In this document: positions 9,710-53,460 of the stretch, piece after piece
How the letters are laid out: the number at the start of each line of letters is the position of its first letter
Numbering within the stretch: position 1 is the stretch's first letter
Origin: an uncultured bacterium
Lineage (GTDB): Bacteria > Hydrothermota > Tepidihabitantia > CAYHGV01
Assembly (NCBI GenBank): GCA_964356135.1
Contig: CAYHGV010000001.1
Location: forward strand, 8,179 to 72,178
Direction of reading: 5' to 3'
Length of the DNA: 64,000 nucleotides
Position numbers and translations under genes: made by a program
Notes under the pieces: generated by a model
What the model was told of the DNA's origin: nothing
Seen by the model: the letters and a program-made list of their open reading frames with translations, nothing else
Databases searched by the model: none

Positions 9710-10234
9710 ATGCTGCTCTTTTCGCTCTTTCTGGTTTTTATAATTATTGCCGCGATCGTGGCAATCGAAATCAAAGACCTCCTGGCGGCGACGATTGCAG
9801 TGGGTGCCGTGGGCTTCGGGGTGGCGATTATGTTTATCCTCACCCAGGCTCCGGATCTGGCGATTGTCCAGATTGTCGTCGAGGTTTTAACCGTCATCGT
9901 CTTTGTCGCGGTTGTGCTGCAGACGACCCACGAGGATACGACCGTCGGGATGAATCGAGGAATGATATTCCCCCTCGTTTCCTATCTGGCGTTCGGTTTC
10001 GTTTTTATTACGCTTGTGCTCTATACGTTCAAAGAGCTTCCACGGTTTGGCGAGCCACTGATCAAGGTTGCACAGTTCTACATCGCTGAGGGTCTTGCGA
10101 AAACCGGCGCGGCGAATATCGTTGCGGCGGTGATTCTTGATTTTCGGGGTTATGATACCCTGGGCGAAGCAACGGTGCTGTTCACCGCAGTAATCGGAGT
10201 ACTAACTATATTAAGAAAGGTAGGACGAAAGTGA
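9710..10234 (+). CDS. MrpB/MnhB-related small membrane subunit (N-terminal domain type).
   Basis: A protein of 174 aa with 4-5 transmembrane helices, placed between the MrpA-like gene and the MnhB-domain gene. The assignment rests on position and hydrophobicity. Confidence 0.55.
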   Translation: MLLFSLFLVFIIIAAIVAIEIKDLLAATIAVGAVGFGVAIMFILTQAPDLAIVQIVVEVLTVIVFVAVVLQTTHEDTTVGMNRGMIFPLVSYLAFGFVFITLVLYTFKELPRFGEPLIKVAQFYIAEGLAKTGAANIVAAVILDFRGYDTLGEATVLFTAVIGVLTILRKVGRK

Positions 10235-10268
10235 ACAATCTCCGCGTTCGTCCGCGTCCTTCCTCGCT

Positions 10269-10712
10269 TTGGCAGAAATGAGCGGAATGACCGTGATTGT
10301 TAAAACGATGGCGCGGATTACGAGCGGGCTGATTTTCCTCTTTGGCTGCTATATCGTGCTCCACGGCCACCTGACGCCGGGCGGAGGATTCGCGGGCGGG
10401 GTGATCATTGCTGCGAGTTTTGTTCTTTTGATATTAGCCTTCGGCAGCCGGGAATCGGGCGAGCGGCGTTCGTATACGGTCGCTTCAATTATGGAAAGTG
10501 TCGGCGGAATTCTCTTTTTAGCGATTGCCGTTTTGGGTTTGTTTGTCGGGAGCTGGTTCTTTTTGAATCTGTTGCCCCATGGCACGCCGTTACGCATCTG
10601 GAGTTCGGGGATTATTTTGCCCGCCAATATCGCGATCGGCATCAAGGTCGGCGCAGGCTTGGTTAGTATCTTTCTTGCGTTTGCCGCTACCAAACACGTC
10701 ACGAAGGAGTAG
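10269..10712 (+). CDS. MrpB/MnhB-domain subunit.
   Basis: LHGHLTPGGGFAGG matches the MnhB signature (GH..PGGGFQ.G). Confidence 0.7.
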   Translation: MAEMSGMTVIVKTMARITSGLIFLFGCYIVLHGHLTPGGGFAGGVIIAASFVLLILAFGSRESGERRSYTVASIMESVGGILFLAIAVLGLFVGSWFFLNLLPHGTPLRIWSSGIILPANIAIGIKVGAGLVSIFLAFAATKHVTKE

Positions 10713-14052: not shown

Positions 14053-14073
14053 TCCGCCAAGATTCATGGCGGA
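14053..14073. promoter_or_regulatory. Palindrome TCCGCCA-N7-TGGCGGA, copy 1. Other copies lie at 14841-14861, 24802-24822 (degenerate), 35155-35175, 44244-44264 and 44316-44336.
   Basis: Read directly: 7-bp perfect inverted arms with an invariant 7-nt spacer length, in six copies, all in non-coding DNA. Confidence 0.6.
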
Positions 14074-14773: not shown

Positions 14774-14861
14774 CGTTTTTTTCCCGAGAGATAAAATAAT
14801 ACCAGCGAACTAACATAGAACTTGAATTCTGACATAACCATCCGCCACGAGGTATGGCGGA

Positions 14862-35078: not shown

Positions 35079-35206
35079 GCATACTATAAAAACCACGGAA
35101 TACACTGAAAGCACTGAACAACAGATTCGGATAGTTCATTATTTTCCTTCCGTGTCCGCCATAGATCGTGGCGGATCCGTGGTTACATTATTTGTCCGGG
35201 GACTTG

Positions 35207-41992: not shown

Positions 41993-43978
41993 TCAGGAGA
42001 CCGGGGTGCCGGGTGGTGCCTCTCGATCCAGTGTCACCAGGGAGATATCTTTGCCATCGGTTGCAGCCAAGAGCATGCCGTGCGAAACCAGGCCGCGGAT
42101 CTTTGCCGGTGCGAGATTGGCAACGAGGACAATGCTTCTGCCGACCAGACTTTCCGGGCTGTAAGCCTGTGCGATACCCGCGACGATCTCGCGCGTTTCC
42201 GTGCCCAGGTCGACCTCGAGGTGCAGCAGCTTGTCCGCGCCTTCGACCTTTACCGCCGAGATGATTTTGGCGACCTTGAGTTCTAACTTTTTGAATTCGT
42301 CAAACGATAGTTCCACCGTTACCTCCTGCGGTTTAGTTAATTTGGCGATCTGGACGTCGATTTTTTCGTCGTCAATTTTATTAAAAAGAATTTTTATCGG
42401 ACCGACCTCGGTGGGCAGAGCCGGGTCTTCGGACTGGTCCCAGTTCCGCTTGCCGAAACAGAGCATCTCGTTGATTGTCCCGGCGGTAAAAGGGAGATAG
42501 GGTTGGGCAAGAATGCCGAGCGCAGAGATTAATTTGAAACAGCAGCTGATCGTCCGCTCACAGGCTTCGGGGTCGGTCTTGATCGTCGACCAGGGCGCCT
42601 GGTAATCGAAGTAGCGGTTGCCCTCCGCCGCAAGCTTCATAATTTCTTTCAAGCCGTTTTTCAATTCGAAGCGCTCAATCAGGGTAGTGAGATTTTTTGA
42701 CGTCTCTCGAATCATGCCCGTAATCCGCTGGTCGACCTCACGGTCGGGATGATGCTTTGGTACTCTGCCGCCGTAGTATTTCTTGGTAAAAAGCACTACC
42801 CGGTTGATAAAATTGCCCAGGATATCGGCAAGCTCATTATTGTTGCGGGCTTGAAAATCCTTCCAGGTGAAATCGACATCCCGGTTTTCGGGGAGGTTTG
42901 CCGCCAGGGTGTAGCGCAGCGGGTCGGGTTCAAATTCGGTTAAATACTCCGGCAGCCAGACCGCCCAGTTACGGGAGGTGGAAAGCGGTCGGCCCTCAAG
43001 GTTCAAAAACTCGTTAGCGGGGATCTCGGCGGGCAATATATAGTCGCCATACGCCATCAGCATTGCCGGCCAGACCATGGCATGAAAGACGATATTGTCC
43101 TTACCGATAAAATGGACGAGCTTTGTGTCCGGGCTCTGCCAGTATTCCTTCCATGCATCCGGTGTGCCCCTTTTTTCCGCCCACTCGATGGTCGACGAGA
43201 TATAACCGATGGGTGCGTCAAACCAGACATACAAAACTTTACCCCGGGCTTCGGCTAACGGCACCGGTACGCCCCAGTTCAGGTCCCGGGTTATCGCTCG
43301 CGGCTCTAATCCTTCTTTGAACCATCCGGCACAGAATTTTAAGACATTATCTTTCCAATCGGTTTTGGTCTGTAGCCAGTCGGCTAACGGTTTCTGGAAT
43401 CGGTCTAAGAGGAAAAACCAGTGGGTGGTCTCGCGTTTTTCCGGGGTGGTCGAGCAGATTTTGCAGCGGGGGTCTTTCAGCTCGAAAGGCTCGAGCCACC
43501 TTCCGCAGGTTTCGCACTGGTCGCCCCGGGCACCGGCTGTTTCACAATGGGGACAGGTCCCTTCGACGTAGCGGTCGGGCAGGAATCGGGAACATTTCGG
43601 GCAGTAGAACTGGGTGAGGGTTTTCGGTTGAATGTAACCTTTCCCGTAGATTTTAAGAAAGAAATCTTGGGCGAGTTTATAGTGGAGGGCGAGGGTGGTG
43701 CGGGAGAAATTGTCGAAGCTGATGCCGAACCGCTCAAAGCTTTCTTTGATGCTCTTATGATAGCGGTCGACGACTGCGCGCGGGGTTGTCTTTTCGGCTT
43801 CGGCTTTTAAGGTTGCGGGTACGCCGTGTTCGTCGGTGCCGCCGATATGAATTACCTCCCGTCCTTTCAGTCGTTGATAGCGGGTATAGATGTCGGCGGG
43901 TAGGTAGCAGCCGGCAAGGTGTCCTAAGTGGATTTCGCCATTGGCATAGGGTAAGGCGCTCGTAACGAGAATTTTCAT
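41993..43978 (-). CDS. metG: Methionyl-tRNA synthetase with a C-terminal EMAP/tRNA-binding domain.
   Basis: N-terminal PYANGEIHLGHL (the HIGH motif), a Zn knuckle CPKC...CPHC, and a C-terminal AKIRGLVSHGMLLAA tRNA-binding domain. Confidence 0.9.
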   Translation of the reverse strand: MKILVTSALPYANGEIHLGHLAGCYLPADIYTRYQRLKGREVIHIGGTDEHGVPATLKAEAEKTTPRAVVDRYHKSIKESFERFGISFDNFSRTTLALHYKLAQDFFLKIYGKGYIQPKTLTQFYCPKCSRFLPDRYVEGTCPHCETAGARGDQCETCGRWLEPFELKDPRCKICSTTPEKRETTHWFFLLDRFQKPLADWLQTKTDWKDNVLKFCAGWFKEGLEPRAITRDLNWGVPVPLAEARGKVLYVWFDAPIGYISSTIEWAEKRGTPDAWKEYWQSPDTKLVHFIGKDNIVFHAMVWPAMLMAYGDYILPAEIPANEFLNLEGRPLSTSRNWAVWLPEYLTEFEPDPLRYTLAANLPENRDVDFTWKDFQARNNNELADILGNFINRVVLFTKKYYGGRVPKHHPDREVDQRITGMIRETSKNLTTLIERFELKNGLKEIMKLAAEGNRYFDYQAPWSTIKTDPEACERTISCCFKLISALGILAQPYLPFTAGTINEMLCFGKRNWDQSEDPALPTEVGPIKILFNKIDDEKIDVQIAKLTKPQEVTVELSFDEFKKLELKVAKIISAVKVEGADKLLHLEVDLGTETREIVAGIAQAYSPESLVGRSIVLVANLAPAKIRGLVSHGMLLAATDGKDISLVTLDREAPPGTPVS

Positions 43979-44470
43979 AGATGAGAGTAACGGTTTTTAT
44001 CACAACTGTCAAGTTAAGCCATTGAGAGCTCTGCGAAACTACAAAAATTATCACGAAAGCACGAAAGGACGAAATTCGAAGAATAGAGTGATTGCAAGGA
44101 ACTCAAAGCCACGAAAAAATAAGCGTAGTATTTTCAAAAAGTTAGAACCTTTCGTGTTTTCCGGATTTCGTGGTTCACGTGATAAAAAGGACTTTTTCAG
44201 GGGTCTCCCATTAGAACTATGATTAACCACAGAAGACACTGAATCCGCCATAGTGCGTGGCGGAACGGAAGGGTAATTGTTTGTATTTCATTATAATTAT
44301 TCGGTGAGTTCCGTGTCCGCCATGTTGCGTGGCGGATCAGTGGTTAAAAATGATTTTTCCAGGGTGGCCATTTGTTTCGCAGCGTGTAGCAGAAGCAAGA
44401 ATCTACGAGTTCGTATAATCAGTCTTATCAGGACTGGATAAAAATCAGGTCTGTCCCGTGCAACGAGGGA

Positions 44471-45151
44471 TTACTTAAAAACTATAACCTTCTTCACGCT
44501 CCTTAACTTTCCGGCAGTAAGGTTGATAAAATAGACCCCCTGCGCATTACCGGTCATATCCAGTTGGAGATGATAATTTCCGCGTTCCTGCACGCCATCC
44601 GCCAGCCTCTTGATTTCTCGTCCGGCTATATCGTAGACGCTTAATGCAACCTCACCTCTTGCAGGTATTTGATAGCTGATTGTCGTTGTCGTGGAGGTTG
44701 GATTTTGACCAAGACGCAGATTTGGACTCTCTACTGTGAGATTTGAATTTTCCTCCACACCTCCTTCCGGACCTAATCTGATGAGATAAACATCAGCCCC
44801 ACCTGCCCCGTAAGAAGTAGTCATGCCTGCGATGATATAACCGCCATCATCGGTCTGCACCACTGAATTGCCCCTATCTCCACCACTGCCGCCACAGGCT
44901 TTTGTCCAGAGTGTATCGCCATTGGCATCAGTCCTGATGAGATAAACATCACCACTACCTTTGGTGTAATACCCGATCATACCCGCTATAATATATCCAC
45001 CATCACCCGTCTGCGCCACTGAATGGCCTGCATCCCAATCACCGCCGCCATATGTTTTTGTCCAGAGCGTATCTGGTGGTTGGGCAGGTACCGTGTTCGG
45101 AAATAGCACTGCTACCATTACCACTAAACCTAATATTTTTATTCTCTTCAT
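44471..45151 (-). CDS. Secreted beta-propeller-repeat protein with a type IX secretion C-terminal sorting domain. It is a paralogue of 49403..50392.
   Basis: Signal peptide MKRIKILGLVVMVAVLF. Repeats of the form DTLWTKTYGG..D.G.SV.QT.DGGYIIAG. A C-terminal NPTSTTTTISYQIP...GVYFINL...KKVIVFK, which is typical of the T9SS sorting domain. The ORF track extends to 45328, but that stretch is unlikely to be coding. Confidence 0.7.
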   Translation of the reverse strand: MKRIKILGLVVMVAVLFPNTVPAQPPDTLWTKTYGGGDWDAGHSVAQTGDGGYIIAGMIGYYTKGSGDVYLIRTDANGDTLWTKACGGSGGDRGNSVVQTDDGGYIIAGMTTSYGAGGADVYLIRLGPEGGVEENSNLTVESPNLRLGQNPTSTTTTISYQIPARGEVALSVYDIAGREIKRLADGVQERGNYHLQLDMTGNAQGVYFINLTAGKLRSVKKVIVFK

Positions 45152-45552
45152 TTTTCCTCCATGTTTTTGCTCATTTTGGTTATTGCCCATTAAGTGCGGT
45201 GTTCCCCTGAGACCTTCCTTTGAATCCTCTGTTTGGGACAAACCATCATCACCGATACTTGTTCTGTAACCCATATAATTCCTTGCCTTACGACAAATTA
45301 AGCCGTAAAGCGGTTTTGCCAAGCACAATATTTGGTAGGTTTTTCAATGGCTTTTTTATAACTTCCTGGTTATAGACGGCTACCTCAACCTCAACCGGTA
45401 AGTCTTTTTACGGAATATTTGACATAGTGCGAATCGAGCCCTAGATTAGAGCGCAGGACGTCAAATAGATTACCTACAATTTAATGAGAAAATTCTCAGG
45501 AACTTTTTCCGAGTTGTGGCTTCAGCGCAATCTTAAATCTGTCAATTAAATT

Positions 45553-45757
45553 TTAAGCAATCTGTACTACTGATGCTGAAACAAGACAATTGCCGGAAAT
45601 ATCGTAGGTCTTCAAGGAAACCGTCGTCGCAGTCGGAGGCTGATACTCGAGGGTGGTCGTCGTGAAGAACGGATTGGGCGCGATTCCGTTAATGCCAAAG
45701 GTAAAAAAGGGGACCGCCTGGATAAACTCCACGCGGCCCCCGGAATTTAAAAATTCG
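45553..45757 (-). pseudogene. Orphan, truncated T9SS C-terminal-domain fragment, out of frame and downstream of the 1066-aa gene.
   Basis: The translation ...APNPFFTTTTLEYQPPTATTVSLKTYDISGNCL matches the start of a T9SS sorting domain, but it ends after about 45 aa and there is no upstream body in frame. Confidence 0.4.
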
Positions 45758-48700
45758 TCAGCGAATAAGAGTGAACTTTCTTGTGGCAGTATAGTGCGAC
45801 GTCTCCATCCGAACGAAGTAAATGCCCATTGCCACCGCTTGCCCCTTGTCATCAATACCACTCCAGGTGATGGTTCTATAACCCGGGTCGTGATTGATTC
45901 CCTCCTCCAAAGTTCGAACCTGTTTACCGGTGATGTCATAAATCCCGAGCCGCACCACGGTTCGATGAGGCAACCCATAGCGAATCTCAACCGTGCCCGG
46001 GCTTGGGTTAGACTGAAGCAAAGTCATAGAGAAACTTTTCGGGACCTCGTCGCTCTGCTCCTCTACGCCCACAGCAGTCAACCAGACCGACTTCGAATCG
46101 TTCGCCGAAGCTGTATCGCCACTCCACTGAGTTGTGACGGTCATCTGGAATAACCCCCGACCGGATACAGTCCAATTTGGAAAAGAAATCTTCTGAGTTG
46201 TATCAGCACCGAGTGTAGCTACTGAAACAGTGTCGTCATAAACCGATGTTACGCCTTTGACAATTTTACACGTAACATCGAAACTGACTGGGGAGGTACC
46301 GTAGTTTTTAACCGTTGCTTGTGGAATATAACTACGGTTAACCTGGACTGGTGAAGTGGGGACGTCAATCGAAACAACCCCCACATCGCCTTTATTGTCT
46401 ACCGCAACGACATCCCATGATAGTTGGTCATCACTCGCGTCCTGGTCATTGGGCAGTGAAGTCCAGGCGGTGATGATATAGGTCGTGCCTGCCGGCGGCT
46501 CGACCGTCCACGTTTCGAAGCTCTGGCTTTTCACTTCGCTTCCGTTCAATCCAGCACAGTCCTCGCTCACGAGGTAGATGACCGTGCTGCCGTCTTCTAT
46601 CTTCAACGAACACGGAAAACTTTCGGTCGCACCCGGTGTCATATTAGTCAATTCGACTGTCGGCGTATAGTCATTGCCGACAACGACTGTGTCCAGGGGC
46701 TCAAGCGGATTTGTAACCGCAACCCCGCCCGTCGTATAGTAAGTTTTCGCCTGCCAATTATTACTCGGGTCGACATCGTTGGTGATGGTCGTGTAGACCG
46801 AATCACGATAGATGACACCGATGCGCTTAAATGTTGTCCACGGAGAAAAAGTAACTTCCCGGCTTTCGCCTGGAGCGAGGTTTTTGACGAGAGTTGGAAA
46901 CCTATGCACGGACACGCTGTTAGTATCGACCTGCCAAATTAGAGTAAAACTCTGGGGAGTCGTGCCGAGATTCACAACAGTCGCCTTCGGGTCATACTTA
47001 TAACCGGTCCAGAGGGTATCCTTGGTGGGATTAGTGATAGCGGTCACGGCGATATCGATCGGTGGAGCCGCCCCAGTAAAGCGCAGTACCCAGAGTCCAG
47101 CATGCCCGGCCGCGAGGTAGATTAAGGTATCCTGCACCACATCAATCCCCCAAGCATGATCGGTTGTTATATAAAAACCGGCGCCGAGAAACGAACCCGG
47201 TGTCGTGACATCAAAAACAAACAATCCATTGTATGCTGCCAGGTAAGCATAATCTCCCGCGACAATAACATCATGAGCAGGGCCGGTGCCTTCACTCCCG
47301 ACATCCGAAGGGCTCGCTGGATTAGAGACATCGAAGCAATGGATGCCGGTCGCTCCTCCATAGTCCGCGATATACGCGTAGTTGCCACTAACCCAGACCC
47401 CTTGCGCATCATCTAATCCGCTGCCTGAGCCCACCAGCGTCGGACTCGCCGGGTTAGCCATATTTAGAATCTCGAGTCCGCCGGTGCCGTCCGCGACATA
47501 GAGCAGCGTATCCCGGCAAAACAGCCCGGATGCCTGACCGGGCGTGTCATAAAAACCAATTTCGGTGAATGGCGCCCGGTAATCAATCACCCGTACGCCG
47601 TTATCGCCTGCCGCCACAATCATGAGCGAGTCATTGTAGTGAATTACATCGTTTGCCCGACCCGCCGTTACCAGACGACCCAATTCCAGTGGCACCCCTG
47701 GGATGGTAATATTGTAAGTCGCAACCCCGGAATCTCCATCCGCGGCAAAGAGCGTATCTAAGTAGGTATTGACACCAGTGAGGTCACCCGGGGTATTCGA
47801 ATAACTATAGATAGGCAGGTTTACCGGGTCCGAGCCATCAAATATAACCAAACCGTAAACCCCGTCCGCCAAGCACGCCAAGGGTGGCGAAAAAGCGGTT
47901 TCGACTGTAACATCCCTGGCAATATCCGGTGTTACATGGACTCCTACTTGAACAGGATAACCAGGGTTCGACATGACATCGAAAATTCGCAGCCCCCCTT
48001 CTTCGGCTGCGACATAACCATAATTGGCATCAGCCCACACCCGGTCTGCACTCCCGACCGTCGCAACGGTAGAAACCACCGAAGGATTGGAGGGATTCGA
48101 TACATTGACCGTAACCAGCCCGGCCGTTCCATCGGCGACATAGGCAAGTGAGCCGACTACATAGATATCGTTCACCCCTGCGGTCAGGGTAGTACGCCCT
48201 ACCCGAGTGGGTGCGGTCGGGTCGGAAATATTGATAACATCGAAAGTCTGGGAACCAAATGGCACATACCCACCAGTGTAAGCATAATTACCCGAAACAA
48301 AAATACAAGAGCTGTTATCACTATAAGTCCCGACTTTAGTGGGAGCTGCTGGGTTTGAGATGTCAAAAATAACGAGACTGGTGGGACCTGCCACATAGAC
48401 ATAATTACTCTGGACAGCAACCCCGATTGCTTCGACGGGCTCGGTTGTCGAAGCGACCTCGGTCGGGTTCGTAGGGTCCGAAATATCGACGACCCGGAGA
48501 TGGCCAGACTTATCGGCAATATACGCGTAGTTGCCGGCGATATCAATTCCTACTGCTTCCCCCGGTGTATCGAGTCCCCCAAGCACCACCGGATTCGACG
48601 GCGTTGAGATATCGTAAATAACAATCCCATTCAATCCGTCAGCCAAAAAGGCAGTATTGCCAACGACCTTGAGGTCATATATCACACCCGATGTTGGCGA

Positions 48701-48958
48701 TTGCCCGGTTAGCGTCGGGCTCGCTGGATTGGATACATTGACCGCCTGAAATCCACCCCAGGCTCCAGTATAGGCATAACCGTTGGCTGCCCAGACTGAA
48801 CGACAAGGGCCGTAAGACCATCGACCAATCGAATAGACATTCAAGGAATCCGCGCCGACGGTCCAGAAGAGCGCCGAGGAGAAAACCATACCCACCATTA
48901 ACGCCATCTCTCCCCAACTCTTTTTTATAATATTATTTTTCTTCATTCGATCGATCAT
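45758..48958 (-). CDS. Large secreted T9SS cargo protein with N-terminal LVIVD beta-propeller repeats, CARDB-like domains and a T9SS C-terminal sorting domain.
   Basis: The protein is 1066 aa. It carries repeated blocks of the form YAY(I/V)AD..GL.I(F/V)DISNP..P. The C-terminal ...GIYFVRMETSHYTATRKFTLIR is the sorting domain. Confidence 0.7.
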   Translation of the reverse strand: MIDRMKKNNIIKKSWGEMALMVGMVFSSALFWTVGADSLNVYSIGRWSYGPCRSVWAANGYAYTGAWGGFQAVNVSNPASPTLTGQSPTSGVIYDLKVVGNTAFLADGLNGIVIYDISTPSNPVVLGGLDTPGEAVGIDIAGNYAYIADKSGHLRVVDISDPTNPTEVASTTEPVEAIGVAVQSNYVYVAGPTSLVIFDISNPAAPTKVGTYSDNSSCIFVSGNYAYTGGYVPFGSQTFDVINISDPTAPTRVGRTTLTAGVNDIYVVGSLAYVADGTAGLVTVNVSNPSNPSVVSTVATVGSADRVWADANYGYVAAEEGGLRIFDVMSNPGYPVQVGVHVTPDIARDVTVETAFSPPLACLADGVYGLVIFDGSDPVNLPIYSYSNTPGDLTGVNTYLDTLFAADGDSGVATYNITIPGVPLELGRLVTAGRANDVIHYNDSLMIVAAGDNGVRVIDYRAPFTEIGFYDTPGQASGLFCRDTLLYVADGTGGLEILNMANPASPTLVGSGSGLDDAQGVWVSGNYAYIADYGGATGIHCFDVSNPASPSDVGSEGTGPAHDVIVAGDYAYLAAYNGLFVFDVTTPGSFLGAGFYITTDHAWGIDVVQDTLIYLAAGHAGLWVLRFTGAAPPIDIAVTAITNPTKDTLWTGYKYDPKATVVNLGTTPQSFTLIWQVDTNSVSVHRFPTLVKNLAPGESREVTFSPWTTFKRIGVIYRDSVYTTITNDVDPSNNWQAKTYYTTGGVAVTNPLEPLDTVVVGNDYTPTVELTNMTPGATESFPCSLKIEDGSTVIYLVSEDCAGLNGSEVKSQSFETWTVEPPAGTTYIITAWTSLPNDQDASDDQLSWDVVAVDNKGDVGVVSIDVPTSPVQVNRSYIPQATVKNYGTSPVSFDVTCKIVKGVTSVYDDTVSVATLGADTTQKISFPNWTVSGRGLFQMTVTTQWSGDTASANDSKSVWLTAVGVEEQSDEVPKSFSMTLLQSNPSPGTVEIRYGLPHRTVVRLGIYDITGKQVRTLEEGINHDPGYRTITWSGIDDKGQAVAMGIYFVRMETSHYTATRKFTLIR

Positions 48959-49141
48959 TTAATTCAACTCGGCTTGCCATAAAACCATTATTGTCAAATT
49001 AAACAAAGTTAACTTTTTGTCAAGGTGCAAAATGTGCGGTGTCCAAGACATACTATACACTTTATGAGATTTGGGTATTCATAATATGTCAGAAAAGCCT
49101 TACAATTGGCACGGGTTGGCTAATCCAGGAGGTGAAACACC

Positions 49142-49387
49142 GTGCAGTGTGGAACCCGTATCAGTTATAAGCAGCTCCGAAAGATCAATCCCGAGGCGGC
49201 CCGGCTGGCAGTCAGGGAGTACCTCAGGACCAATGGTCATAACATCGCACACACGGCTCGGGCCTTCGGCATTACCCGGCCGGTCATCTATGATATCATC
49301 AGGAAAGAGCACGAAGGCAATTACGAGATCGCTCCAGCGTTCCCCATCACCAACCCCGCAAGACATACAACCTTTCAAGCAAATTAG
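49142..49387 (+). mobile_element. Remnant of an IS481-family transposase N-terminal helix-turn-helix domain (81 codons, no catalytic domain).
   Basis: Compared by eye with IS481 transposase N-terminal HTH domains: KINPEAARLAVREYLRTNGHNIAHTARAFGITRPVIYDIIRKEHEG resembles ARLTP.GR..LV.R....G.SV..AA..FGVS..TVYKW. It lies between two paralogous minus-strand genes. Confidence 0.4.
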
Positions 49388-49402
49388 CAATCAGAAATTC
49401 AA

Positions 49403-50392
49403 CTACTGCAAAACTATAACCTTCTTCACGCTCCTTAACTTTCCGGCAGTAAGGTTGATAAAATAGACCCCTTGAGCATAACCGGTCAGATTTAGTTGCA
49501 GATGATAATCACCACGCTCCTGCACATTAGCCACCAACCTCTTGATTTCACTTCCGCTTATATCGTAGACGCTTAATGAAACCTCGCTCCTTACAGGTAT
49601 TTGATAACTGATTGTCGTTGTCGTGGAGATTGGATTTTGACCGAGACGCAGATTTGGACTCTCTAATGTGAGATTTGAATTTTCCTCAACGCCTGTTTCA
49701 GGGCCTAACCGGATGAGATAAACATCCCGATCACCTGCTCCGAAAGACTCGGTATAGCCTGCAATGATATAACCCCCATCACTGGTCTGGGCCACTGAAC
49801 GGCCCCCATCATTATCACTCCCGCCGTAGGTTTTTGTCCAGAGCGTGTCGCCATTGGTATCGGTCCTGATGATATAAACATCAACATCCCCTGCCCCGAA
49901 AGAACCGGTCTCGCCAGCGATGATATAGCCGCCATCATCAGTCTGCACCACAGACCAGCCATATTCATCGCCCTCACCGCCATAGGTTTTTGTCCAGACG
50001 GAATCGCCATTGCCATCGGTCTTGATGAGATAAACATTTCCGTTATTTTCTACGTAAGGCCGAGTCCGACCAGCAATGATATAGCCTCCATCACTTGTCT
50101 CGACCATTGAGTATGCCTTATCTATATAACTACCACCATAGATTTTTGTCCAGCACATGTCTCCAAGGCTATCGGTCTTGATTAGATAAATATCACTACC
50201 CTCTGCCCCGTAAGATGTATAACCTGCGATGATATAGCTGCCATCTGCGGTTACTTCCACTGTATACCCCATATCATTTGCGCTACCTCCGTAGGTTCTT
50301 GTCCAGAGCGTGTCCGGTGGTTGAGCAGGGGCCATGTTCGATAATAGCACCACTGCCAATACCACTAACCCTAATATTTTTATTCTCGTCAT
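49403..50392 (-). CDS. Secreted beta-propeller-repeat protein with a T9SS C-terminal sorting domain (5 repeats). It is a paralogue of 44471..45151.
   Basis: Signal peptide MTRIKILGLVVLAVVLL; five repeats; a sorting domain that is nearly identical at the nucleotide level to that of the 44471 gene (about 85 nt around 49403-49490 against 44471-44560). Confidence 0.7.
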   Translation of the reverse strand: MTRIKILGLVVLAVVLLSNMAPAQPPDTLWTRTYGGSANDMGYTVEVTADGSYIIAGYTSYGAEGSDIYLIKTDSLGDMCWTKIYGGSYIDKAYSMVETSDGGYIIAGRTRPYVENNGNVYLIKTDGNGDSVWTKTYGGEGDEYGWSVVQTDDGGYIIAGETGSFGAGDVDVYIIRTDTNGDTLWTKTYGGSDNDGGRSVAQTSDGGYIIAGYTESFGAGDRDVYLIRLGPETGVEENSNLTLESPNLRLGQNPISTTTTISYQIPVRSEVSLSVYDISGSEIKRLVANVQERGDYHLQLNLTGYAQGVYFINLTAGKLRSVKKVIVLQ

Positions 50393-50822
50393 TTTTTCCT
50401 CCCTTCCCTGCACATTTTGGGTCTTAAACATTGATTGTGGAGTTGCGTTGAGGTCGTCGCATAAATTCCCCACTTTCGATAATCCAATACTCCCTGTAGT
50501 TTTTCTGTAACCCATTTCGCTCCTTACGACAAAATAAGCTATAAAACGGTTGTGTCAAGTGCAAATTATTATCTTAATGGCTCGTCTGTTAATGAATGGT
50601 GGAGATTGACTTTGAGAACACAAAAATCAAAAAGTTATGAGTTCGTATAATCCCTCTTATCAGGACTGGATAAAATTCTTTCAATAGACCGCTCTGCTCC
50701 ATTCTCTATCCGGTCCAGGGCGTGGACATGGGTCGAGTGGTGGTCAATCGGATTTATTCGACTTTCCCGGCTATTGGTTTAACATTGACAAGGCCAGTAT
50801 TTTCAATGAGAATGTAATCACA

Positions 50823-51803
50823 ATGATTAAAATAATGGCAGGGTTGCTCTTGATACTATTGTTGATGCCGAATTGCAGCAAAAAAGAAGATATCGATTAC
50901 GAACAGGCGATGGTTGATTTTGTCGTCGGCATCGCCGATTCAGCACGTGCTCAAAATCTGGATTTCGGCATCTTCCCCCAGAATGGTTCGGCATTGGGAA
51001 GTCATCCTGAGTATTTGTCGGTCGTAACCGGCATCGGCCAGGAGGATGTATACTATGGCTACGATGGCGATGGTATCGCTACTCCGGCAGCGGTAACGGC
51101 TGAGCTTGAAACCAATCTCGATGTTTTTCACAACGCCGGGAAATTGGTGCTAACGATTGACTATCCTTTTCCGCCGGGTTCACACTTCCCGGTTTTTGAT
51201 GCGCCGACCCGGGCGAAAATCGATAGTGCCTATTCCCGGGCCGAGACCAAAGGGTATGTCTCTTACTGCACGGTTCGGGATTTGGATTATCTTGTGGTTA
51301 ATCCCGGCCATGAGCCTACCTCCAACATTCCTGCCGTCACTCAATGGGATGAAGTCAAAGAATTTGCCTACCAGCTACAACCGACCGAAGGGGTGAGCCG
51401 GCAGGCACACCTTGCCGCCTTAGCCCAGTCGAAATTCGATTTGATTGTTATCGATTATTCGTTCGATGGGTCGGATGAGCAGGCATATACGAACGGCGAG
51501 ATTGCCTCGCTGAAACAGAGTCTGGGTGGAAAGATTCTCGCTTATCTTTCGATTGGCGAAGCGGAGAATTATCGCTGGTTCTGGCAGGAGAGCTGGGATG
51601 AAAACCAGGACGGAAAACCGGATGCCGGCGCGCCGGACTGGCTTCGTAACCAGAATCCGGACTGGCCGGGTAATTATAAAGTGCAATACTGGGAGCCGGA
51701 ATGGCAGGCTATCATCTTTCAGTATCTTAATAAAATCATTGATGCCGGTTTTGACGGAGTCTATTTAGACCTGATTGATGCCTACGAATACTTCGCCCAA
51801 TAA
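50823..51803 (+). CDS. Lipoprotein of the GH114/TM1410-like TIM-barrel glycosidase family.
   Basis: Lipobox LMPNCSK. LAYLSIGEAENYRWFW and DGVYLDLIDAYEYF resemble the GH114 (PelA-like) family. Confidence 0.6.
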   Translation: MIKIMAGLLLILLLMPNCSKKEDIDYEQAMVDFVVGIADSARAQNLDFGIFPQNGSALGSHPEYLSVVTGIGQEDVYYGYDGDGIATPAAVTAELETNLDVFHNAGKLVLTIDYPFPPGSHFPVFDAPTRAKIDSAYSRAETKGYVSYCTVRDLDYLVVNPGHEPTSNIPAVTQWDEVKEFAYQLQPTEGVSRQAHLAALAQSKFDLIVIDYSFDGSDEQAYTNGEIASLKQSLGGKILAYLSIGEAENYRWFWQESWDENQDGKPDAGAPDWLRNQNPDWPGNYKVQYWEPEWQAIIFQYLNKIIDAGFDGVYLDLIDAYEYFAQ

Positions 51804-51968
51804 TAAGTTATTATACACAGAGAGATACAGAGGATTAAATTCTAAATCCCAAATTCTATACCCTAAACAATTTTTAAATCTCAATTTCTTAAATTCCAAA
51901 AGGGTTTGGATATTGATAATTTTTGATTTGTTTAGGATTTCGGATTTAGAAATTAGAATTTATTAAAG

Positions 51969-52838: not shown

Positions 52839-53093
52839 ATGGCAGTAGTCAAGGTATCATCTAAGGGTCAGGTCGTTATCCCAAAGGAACTCCGGAAAAA
52901 GTATGGAATAAAACCTGAGACCGAAGTCCTGATTTCGGACGTCAACGGAAAGATTGTTGTCGCTCCGTTGTTGGAAGACGCGGTCCGCCAGTCGAAAGGA
53001 GTTTTAAAAGGTGGAAGGTCTTTGACTAAGGCATTGCTTGCAGCAAGAAAATTAGAGCGCGAACAGGATGGGAAAAAGATACGTTATAGATAG
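52839..53093 (+). CDS. vapB: AbrB/MazE/SpoVT-type antitoxin.
   Basis: SKGQVVIPKELRKKYGIKP swapped-hairpin motif. It overlaps vapC by 26 nt. Confidence 0.8.
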   Translation: MAVVKVSSKGQVVIPKELRKKYGIKPETEVLISDVNGKIVVAPLLEDAVRQSKGVLKGGRSLTKALLAARKLEREQDGKKIRYR

Positions 53094-53460
53094 CTTTGCT
53101 TTGCTTGCCTATCTTCAAGGCGAAGCCGGAGCTGAGTTGGTGGAAAAAGTCCTTAAGGATAAAGATTGCGAGGTGTTCCTGTGCACTATCAATTTAGGCG
53201 AGGTCTATTATGTCATCGCTAAAGAGCGGGGTGAGGACGAGGCTGAAAAGGCGCTTCTGATTATCGAGCAGCTGCCCATAAGACAAGAGGATTCGACCAA
53301 AGAATTGACTTTGAAGGCGGCAAGGATTAAAGCGAAATTCCCAGTTGCGTATGCCGATGCGTTTGTAGCAGCAATGGCGCAAGAGAAGGGTGCTGTCATT
53401 CTTACCGGTGACCCGGATTTTGAGAAAATCGAAGGGATTAAAATTGAATGGCATAGGTGA
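53068..53460 (+). CDS. vapC: PIN-domain ribonuclease toxin.
   Basis: YVIDSFALLAYL (D4), E..., ADAFVAA and GDPDF acidic residues of the PIN fold. Confidence 0.85.
   Translation: MGKRYVIDSFALLAYLQGEAGAELVEKVLKDKDCEVFLCTINLGEVYYVIAKERGEDEAEKALLIIEQLPIRQEDSTKELTLKAARIKAKFPVAYADAFVAAMAQEKGAVILTGDPDFEKIEGIKIEWHR

Follow-up and report, generated by a model that had tools for sequence, protein, structure and literature searches.

Probable old paralogues and their decayed neighbours in a cluster of predicted type IX secretion cargo genes from an uncultured Hydrothermota bacterium

Do two neighbouring genes for repeat-built surface proteins that end in almost the same nucleotides mark a site of recent gene shuffling, or are they simply old duplicates that share a conserved domain? 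The question is raised by a 64,000-nt stretch of DNA from an uncultured bacterium (GTDB lineage Bacteria; Hydrothermota; Tepidihabitantia; CAYHGV01; assembly GCA_964356135.1, contig CAYHGV010000001.1, positions 8,179 to 72,178), referred to here as the window. Between positions 44393 and 50678 of the window lie two related genes, designated A and B, whose products are predicted cargo of the type IX secretion system (T9SS), together with a third probable cargo gene, a fragment of a C-terminal sorting domain (CTD) and the remnant of an insertion sequence (IS). An earlier note on this DNA had proposed that the sorting-domain-encoding 3' ends of A and B recombined or were converted recently, and that surface proteins may be shuffled here as cassettes with the help of the decayed IS. 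Our analysis points the other way. A and B are probably old, tandem-oriented paralogues in the T9SS cargo cluster of a bacterium of the FCB group, a cluster that also carries scars of decay, reflecting ordinary turnover of a surface-gene family rather than recent cassette shuffling. This history is read from a single sequence and one distant locus (L081, a contig from another metagenome that encodes the protein P0030). The features that carry the argument are as follows.

Gene A, 44471-45151, minus strand: 226 amino acids (aa); signal peptide, two SBBP/DUF5122-type propeller blades and a T9SS type A sorting domain (CTD 44474-44779).
Gene B, 49403-50392, minus strand: 329 aa; signal peptide, four propeller blades and a T9SS type A sorting domain (CTD 49406-49711).
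Perfect tract, 44478-44539 in A and 49410-49471 in B, minus strand: 62 nt with 0 differences, encoding GVYFINLTAGKLRSVKKVIV.

To judge from their shared architecture, genes A and B are real paralogues and both are predicted T9SS type A CTD cargo. In each, the sorting domain lies at the C-terminus and scores above the curated cutoffs (TIGR04183, 41.2 bits in A and 35.7 bits in B, cutoff 23; PF18962, 37.1 and 37.8 bits, cutoff 27), spanning residues 149-224 of 226 in A and 252-327 of 329 in B. An N-terminal Sec signal peptide, recognised by inspection only, follows the pattern M(K/T)RIKILGLVV..AVL....(V/A)PAQ, with GGAGG ahead of it (7 nt before the ATG in gene A). The two proteins are built from the same type of repeat, as the earlier note had said, with a unit of 156 nt or 52 aa. 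Gene B matches DUF5122 (31.8 bits, cutoff 27) and the delta-60 repeat (E = 1.6e-11, 43.9 bits, under the cutoff of 76.5); gene A reaches 17.5 bits with DUF5122, under the cutoff of 27, and its blades nonetheless align with those of B. Two repeats had been counted in A and five in B: the former number is correct, but B has four blades, as seen from its four WT[KR] units and four copies of a 98-nt repeat.

The homology between A and B begins at around 45328/50564, runs to the last sense codons and ends at the stop codon. Along this block, nucleotide identity is 81% in the promoter core (43 nt), 62% in the leader, 84% in the signal peptide, 70% for the blade pair A1/B3, 75% for A2/B4, 87% in the 306 nt that encode the CTD and 93% in the last 85 nt. 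At face value the 3' end is therefore more alike than the blades (87% versus 70-75%), as a model of recent recombination needs. The near-identity described by the earlier note over some 85 nt of the sorting-domain ends holds for the last 62-85 nt, with their perfect 62-nt run, but does not extend to the CTD as a whole. We estimated synonymous (dS) and nonsynonymous (dN) divergence by the Nei-Gojobori method on positionally equivalent segments of A and B, each with 22-72 synonymous sites. The signal peptide gives dS 0.34 and dN 0.13, the last blade (A2/B4) dS 0.38 and dN 0.26, and the CTD dS 0.35 and dN 0.09; without its last 22 codons, the dS of the CTD is 0.47. When synonymous differences in the CTD are compared with those in the last blade, Fisher's test returns P = 1.0. 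The higher nucleotide identity at the 3' end thus arises because the CTD tolerates fewer amino-acid changes (dN 0.09 versus 0.26) whilst dS is flat, and also because the internal blades with which it is compared are not equivalent. The internal pair A1/B3 has a dS of 0.87 and A1/B1 is saturated, as expected of blades that are not one-to-one counterparts.

These comparisons show that the 3' end has not been homogenised recently, and that conversion is not needed to account for the similarity of the CTDs. Judged by the same measure, a dS of ~0.35 cannot be called recent, being close to the divergence between gene A and P0030, a protein from another metagenome (dS 0.45 in the CTD and 0.15 in the signal peptide). 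The protein sequences agree with this. P0008, the homologue nearest to gene B (69% identity, from another contig), has a CTD 83.3% identical to those of A and B, which are likewise 83.3% identical to each other, and this equidistance argues against concerted evolution of A and B at the protein level. What survives of the proposed conversion is confined to the terminal 62-nt tract, in which 0/14 synonymous sites have changed (P ~0.002-0.01 before correction for the choice of window) and for which the expected number of perfect runs at 87% identity is 0.007. This may be a short conversion tract, albeit on small numbers; constraint acting on the DNA is the alternative, and in P0030 the synonymous sites of the same 20 codons are likewise little changed (2/13).

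The interior of the two genes probably has a different history from their ends. Proteins of this family appear normally to have seven SBBP/DUF5122-type blades between the Sec signal peptide and the type A sorting domain: P0008 and P0030 have seven each, and the relatives are mostly 480-520 aa long with seven blades. In P0008, blades 2-3 (and the start of 4) are perfectly repeated as blades 5-6, which indicates a very recent internal duplication and thus that the family readily changes its number of blades. When the blades of A and B are compared one by one with each other and with those of P0008 and P0030, no one-to-one correspondence emerges among internal blades; the last blades alone (A2, B4 and blade 7 of both P0008 and P0030) group together, with 67-73% mutual identity. 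By their sequence pattern the blades belong to the SBBP/DUF5122/delta-60 propeller group, which includes CylK (PDB 7ron, 7fh6) and with which they share the 52-aa unit and the pattern W-T-K-T-Y-G-G ... D-G-G-Y-I-I-A-G; P0030 matches the CylK propeller chain in sequence with E = 3e-19. Unlike CylK-type propellers, A and B have just two and four blades, and no catalytic or Ca-binding N-terminal domain. An AlphaFold2 model of the gene B protein (mean pLDDT 91) has a helix at residues 2-18, approximately four blades of four strands each, a linker of low confidence and a CTD folded as a beta-sandwich; there are 15 blade strands, the N-terminal WTRTYGG segment not being modelled as a closing strand. 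The best fold matches to this model are the CylK propeller and then the T9SS protein PorZ. A closed propeller of this type has seven blades, more than are found in either protein. Both genes have nevertheless been kept: dN/dS between A and B is 0.26-0.69, which shows, on these substitution counts, purifying selection on both over most of the time since duplication. Intact open reading frames (ORFs) alone are no proof of function here, because deletions between the 156-nt repeats stay in frame.

The database entries for B and A are P0002 (370 aa) and P0135 (267 aa), respectively. Both begin 41 codons upstream of the ATG that is preceded by a Shine-Dalgarno sequence (45152-45274 / 50393-50515, minus strand). 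Over this extension A and B are 62% identical in nucleotides and pN/pS is near neutral (0.35/0.49), so the leader is taken to be non-coding. As translation from the upstream start would in addition bury the signal peptide, the 41-codon extension is probably an annotation artefact and not translated.

All genes of the region are on the minus strand, with GH114-type and PHP-domain genes beyond it on the plus strand, and A and B, on the same strand, bracket an LVIVD/CARDB gene. The elements of the locus are given below in their 5' to 3' order on the minus strand, that is, from high to low coordinates.

Repeat M, copy 2, 50625-50678: 60 nt upstream of the upstream homology block of gene B and 145 nt upstream of the divergent GH114 gene.
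Promoter-like site and leader of gene B, 50393-50564, minus strand: TTGACA 50558-50553, N17, ATTTTG 50535-50530.
Gene B, 50392-49403.
IS481-like remnant, 49033-49387, plus strand (opposite to its neighbours): left terminal sequence TGTGCGGTGTCC... (49033-49086) and the decayed N-terminal helix-turn-helix (HTH) of a transposase (49142-49387).
Promoter-like site of the LVIVD gene, 49023-48995, minus strand: TTGACA-N17-AATTTG.
LVIVD/CARDB gene, 45758-48958, minus strand: 1066 aa; LVIVD 259.8 bits in 10 stretches; CARDB; FlgD_ig/CTD-like end.
Intrinsic terminator of the LVIVD gene, 45703-45741, minus strand: GC-rich hairpin then U6, between the LVIVD stop codon and the relic.
Orphan CTD relic, 45556-45705, minus strand: N-terminal half of a sorting domain; recognisable homology 45589-45684.
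Conserved non-coding block, 45375-45441, minus strand: 67 nt (GGGCTCGATTCGCACTATGTCAAATATTCCGTAAAAAGACTTACCGGTTGAGGTTGAGGTAGCC...), ahead of the gene A promoter; gene B has no counterpart in its upstream region.
Promoter-like site and leader of gene A, 45152-45328, minus strand: TTGGCA 45322-45317, N17, AATTTG 45299-45294; leader of ~140 nt; homologous to the region upstream of gene B.
Gene A, 45151-44471.
Repeat M, copy 1, 44393-44446: core TCTTATCAGGACTGGATAAAA with the palindrome TTATC-N7-GATAA; starts 25 nt downstream of the gene A stop codon.
Two REP-like hairpins, then metG, 43978-41993.

The GC content of the segment (0.487, compared with 0.494 for the window) betrays no compositional anomaly. 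A horizontal origin of the segment was considered and rejected on the grounds that GC and skew are unremarkable, as was an assembly artefact, since the paralogues differ by two blades and have 4.2 kb of unique sequence between them.

The gene between the paralogues had been described as encoding a 1066-aa LVIVD-repeat T9SS protein, and this description holds up, with the qualification that its CTD-like end falls just under the thresholds (TIGR04183, 21.1 bits, cutoff 23; PF18962, 17.7 bits, cutoff 27). FlgD_ig matches residues 1000-1054 with E = 1e-7, and the C-terminus is 30% identical to the CTD of gene A, making the LVIVD protein a probable T9SS cargo. Its terminator folds with -30.1 kcal/mol (z = -5.0), and 0/200 shuffled sequences fold as well. 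Behind this terminator lies the relic. The 45-aa fragment reported previously is a genuine partial CTD: the stretch 45589-45684 is 53% identical to residues 23-54 of the gene B CTD (E = 3e-7 within the window) and matches positions 1-36 of the 72 in TIGR04183 (E = 4e-4). Both the cargo part and the C-terminal strands, which hold the conserved end of a complete sorting domain, are missing from it, and its protein sequence is 48-53% identical to those of the live CTDs. Nor is it a piece of a larger real gene, the ORFs that overlap it having no family match. No other CTD-like sequence is found in the window.

The IS481-family HTH remnant noted previously at 49142-49387 is correctly identified but longer than was thought, beginning at a left end at 49033 that reads TGTGCGG... 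and so starts with TGT as IS481 elements do. The sequence 49033-49086 is 89% identical over 54 nt to a stretch upstream of a homologous copy on a second contig (L082:3888-3941), with the similarity starting exactly at TGT. The 81-aa ORF at 49142-49387 encodes the N-terminal piece of an IS481-like transposase and retains the HTH_28 module typical of the family. Its homologues (P0122-P0133, 56-75% identity, on short contigs or contig ends) carry HTH_28 and HTH_32 and match NF033577 best; for P0126 the match, to positions 2-107, has E = 8e-16, better than with IS630, IS3 and IS21 models. The ORF itself matches NF033577 at positions 2-46 of 284 with E = 0.042, and its start region is decayed too, with in-frame stops upstream. 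In contrast to a complete member of the family, only ~350 nt are left: the DDE (rve) domain of the ~300-400 aa transposase is absent from the stub, the window contains no other transposase or IS piece and no inverted copy of the left end that could serve as the right inverted repeat, and no target duplication can be identified. On this anatomy the IS is a remnant, not capable of transposition. Its homology fades at ~49365-49375, next to the gene B stop codon (49403-49405) at which the A/B homology ends, and one breakpoint thus lies within ~30 nt of the 3' end of gene B, the break in the IS being some 15-27 nt or less from that stop codon. The stub fits a single IS-adjacent deletion or rearrangement, or a junction made when the gene B copy was placed there, rather than a recurring mechanism.

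From these observations we can outline a probable history of the locus. A segment from promoter to stop codon, with the limits of the present homology (~45328/50564 to the last sense codons), was duplicated. Since then the copies have accumulated ~0.35 synonymous substitutions per site along their shared length, and the blade numbers have changed to 2 and 4, most likely through in-frame unequal homologous recombination between the 156-nt repeats, a process that would keep the ends and scramble the interior. The CTDs look more alike solely through the smaller number of amino-acid changes they tolerate, although their last 62 nt may have been made identical by a single short conversion. An IS481-like element would have inserted 9 nt upstream of the -35 hexamer of the LVIVD gene and then lost everything beyond ~codon 80 in a deletion or rearrangement with its other end just 3' of gene B. 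Finally, between gene A and the LVIVD gene there would once have been a further cargo gene, of which half a CTD is left behind the terminator of the latter.

A direct repeat, M, brackets the whole 6.2-kb segment. The 40-nt motif reported at 44405 and 50640 is real and extends to 54 nt, with 46/54 positions identical between the copies, direct orientation and a perfect 21-nt core. The 37-mers 44407-44443 and 50639-50675 agree at 35 specified bases and differ at two central positions, which are N in the pattern. The motif occurs just twice in the window and never in 100 shuffled sequences. In both copies the palindrome lies ~107-115 nt upstream of a -35-like hexamer (minus strand). The regions fold no better than shuffled sequences and have no Rfam match, and the repeat is absent from L081. 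To judge from their similarity, the two copies of M are homologous DNA, most likely either a protein-binding (regulator) site or the scar of an older (motif-gene)n tandem array, both more likely than an att site.

The 5' regions of A and B are alike, as had been claimed, being homologous from ~45328/50564 onwards. Part of the signal, though, is the promoter consensus of the organism, since three cargo genes share the promoter-like architecture TTGRCA-N17-AWTTTG (45322-45294, 49023-48995, 50558-50530). Upstream of the gene A promoter, the non-coding block 45375-45441 is identical at 55/67 and 54/67 positions to two copies in L081 (6902-6968 and 8526-8592); at 81-82% identity it is more conserved than synonymous sites. 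One of the L081 copies stands upstream of a different CTD-bearing gene. We considered whether the block is the decayed C-terminal end of the CTD relic, with which it shares a reading frame and in which the stop falls at the same place in three copies, and rejected this: conservation is strongest beyond that stop, and nothing resembling a CTD precedes the copies in L081. In L081 (6902-7106 versus 9992-10366), the A-type upstream region is split: its distal part, with block, promoter and 'ATGGGTTACAGAA' leader, is found ~2.9 kb from the proximal leader and gene, the intervening stretch holding a periplasmic-binding-protein gene and another CTD-bearing gene. As the distal and proximal upstream parts are separated, the homologous locus has been rearranged in L081 too.

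How well do other explanations fare? That the CTD-coding 3' ends recombined or were converted recently, with the CTD fragment and the IS as parts of a cassette-like shuffling process, seems to us unlikely. It draws on the contrast in identity between CTD and blades, on the unchanged synonymous sites of the 62-nt tract, and on the presence of a broken CTD and a broken IS between the paralogues, with the A/B homology ending within ~30 nt of the IS break. Yet the CTD has the same dS as the signal peptide and last blade, a value that is higher still without the final codons, and the CTD of P0008 is as close to those of A and B as they are to each other. The relic is single, decayed, set behind a strong terminator and only about half identical to the live CTDs, and no silent cassette array exists here. 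The one-ended stub, with no second IS copy or right end in the window, speaks for one event rather than for an IS that facilitates shuffling; neither the cassette-like shuffling proposed in the earlier note nor its facilitation by the IS finds support. Nor has the CTD subtype been found on other types of cargo. Among the best 120 relatives of gene B, a CTD more than 43% identical to that of gene A occurs in P0002, P0008 and P0030 only. An exhaustive HMMER scan of 1.84 billion cluster representatives found the subtype only in A, B and their clusters, and on no other cargo type. In JGI metagenomes a degenerate DNA pattern for GVYFINLTAGK gave 0 matches and a scan with the CTD alignment only matches of <=39% identity, and a word-index search with the CTD alone gave no match. 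With methionyl-tRNA synthetase as a synteny anchor in GTDB species genomes, the matches listed included only ~50%-identical Bacteroidota. It is less probable still that a function at the level of DNA or RNA (a regulator-binding site, for instance, or an antisense promoter), rather than any recombination event, preserves the 62-nt identity and the 54-nt motif. The perfect palindrome at the core of the motif and its similar distance from a -35-like hexamer in both copies are compatible with this, as are the few synonymous changes in P0030 and a plus-strand promoter-like match inside the identical tract of both genes (44503-44532 and 49435-49464); but the promoter matches are consensus-only, there is neither an RNA family match over 43500-51500 (Rfam) nor a fold signal, the motif is missing from L081 and the counts are too small for significance. 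Very improbable, finally, is an island, inserted or excisable, in which the repeats that bound 44393-50678 (6.2 kb) would be att-like target-site duplications. The repeats do bracket A and B exactly, lie outside the homology block and have housekeeping-type genes on their far sides (metG on one, GH114 and PHP on the other); however, they are already 15% diverged, the base composition is that of the rest of the window, no integrase or recombinase is found within or beside the segment, the IS stub being the sole trace of a mobile element, and ARAGORN finds no tRNA in the whole window.

The old-paralogue reading that we prefer has difficulties of its own. The dS estimates, based on so few synonymous sites per segment, carry wide errors. 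Repeat M is upstream of B but downstream of A, beyond the A/B homology block, and is less diverged (15%) than synonymous sites (28%); because of this position and low divergence, a single promoter-to-stop duplication fails to account for it. The order of events, like any polymorphism in blade number, is deduced from this locus rather than observed in related genomes or strains. Proteins of two or four blades, moreover, cannot close a seven-bladed propeller, and yet both genes show purifying selection. A speculative reading, to which we give very little credence, is that A and B, far from being leftovers of decay, encode 'fragment propellers': secreted proteins of two and four blades, kept by selection, which after T9SS export would form closed propellers on the cell surface as homo- or hetero-assemblies, their expression being coordinated through the 54-nt palindromic element and the conserved upstream block.

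Known systems offer two further points of reference. The P. gingivalis genes rgpA, kgp and hagA have a conserved CTD and repeated adhesin modules in common, the number and order of the modules differing (PMC5266723), and, according to a passage in the same source that cites Kozarov 1998, the number of hagA repeats differs between strains. The genes described here resemble this group in joining a Sec signal peptide to a passenger of repeated modules and a conserved CTD of ~80 aa (TIGR04183 / PF18962), but differ in that the passenger consists of propeller blades and not cleaved-adhesin domains, that they are known from a single sequence, and that the divergence between A and B (dS ~0.35) is far above that of the near-identical gingipain adhesin modules. 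Antigenic variation from silent cassettes is the other reference point, with pilE/pilS of Neisseria, tprK of Treponema and MgPa of Mycoplasma as examples. The likeness lies in the incomplete, promoterless copy of part of a surface-protein gene close to expressed paralogues. In contrast to those systems, however, we find one fragment rather than an array, at ~50% identity rather than near-identity and incomplete, without flanking conserved recombination tracts or observed variation; several near-identical promoterless donor cassettes and mosaic expressed genes are not present at the locus.

Taken together, the locus is a clean small example of turnover in repeat-built T9SS cargo families, with little import beyond annotation. 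The number of blades shifts in frame between fixed ends, with the signal peptide on one side and the last blade and sorting domain on the other, and remains of IS elements and pseudogenes gather between the duplicates. The case is also a warning about method: where paralogues are more alike in nucleotides over a conserved domain, this is no evidence of conversion unless synonymous sites agree.

Three further elements of the window deserve mention. A hairpin, TCCGCCA-N7-TGGCGGA, with a perfect 7-bp stem, occurs five times compared with 0.3 expected (14053-14073, 14841-14861, 35155-35175, 44244-44264 and 44316-44336), in all cases apparently between genes. The copies share flanks (ccgtgTCCGCCA...TGGCGGAtc.gtggtta), and two of them sit 72 nt apart between gene A and metG. 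From its sequence and distribution this looks like a dispersed REP-like (repetitive extragenic palindromic) or terminator-like element. Between the GH114-type and PHP-domain genes, positions 51836-51962 contain AT-rich inverted repeats with arms of 44-47 nt that are 70-75% complementary. At 52839-53460, an 84-aa ORF with an N-terminus that by eye resembles antitoxins of the AbrB/SpoVT type (MAVVKVSSKGQVVIPKELRKKYGIK...) overlaps the start of a 130-aa ORF, and the two may form a putative toxin-antitoxin pair.

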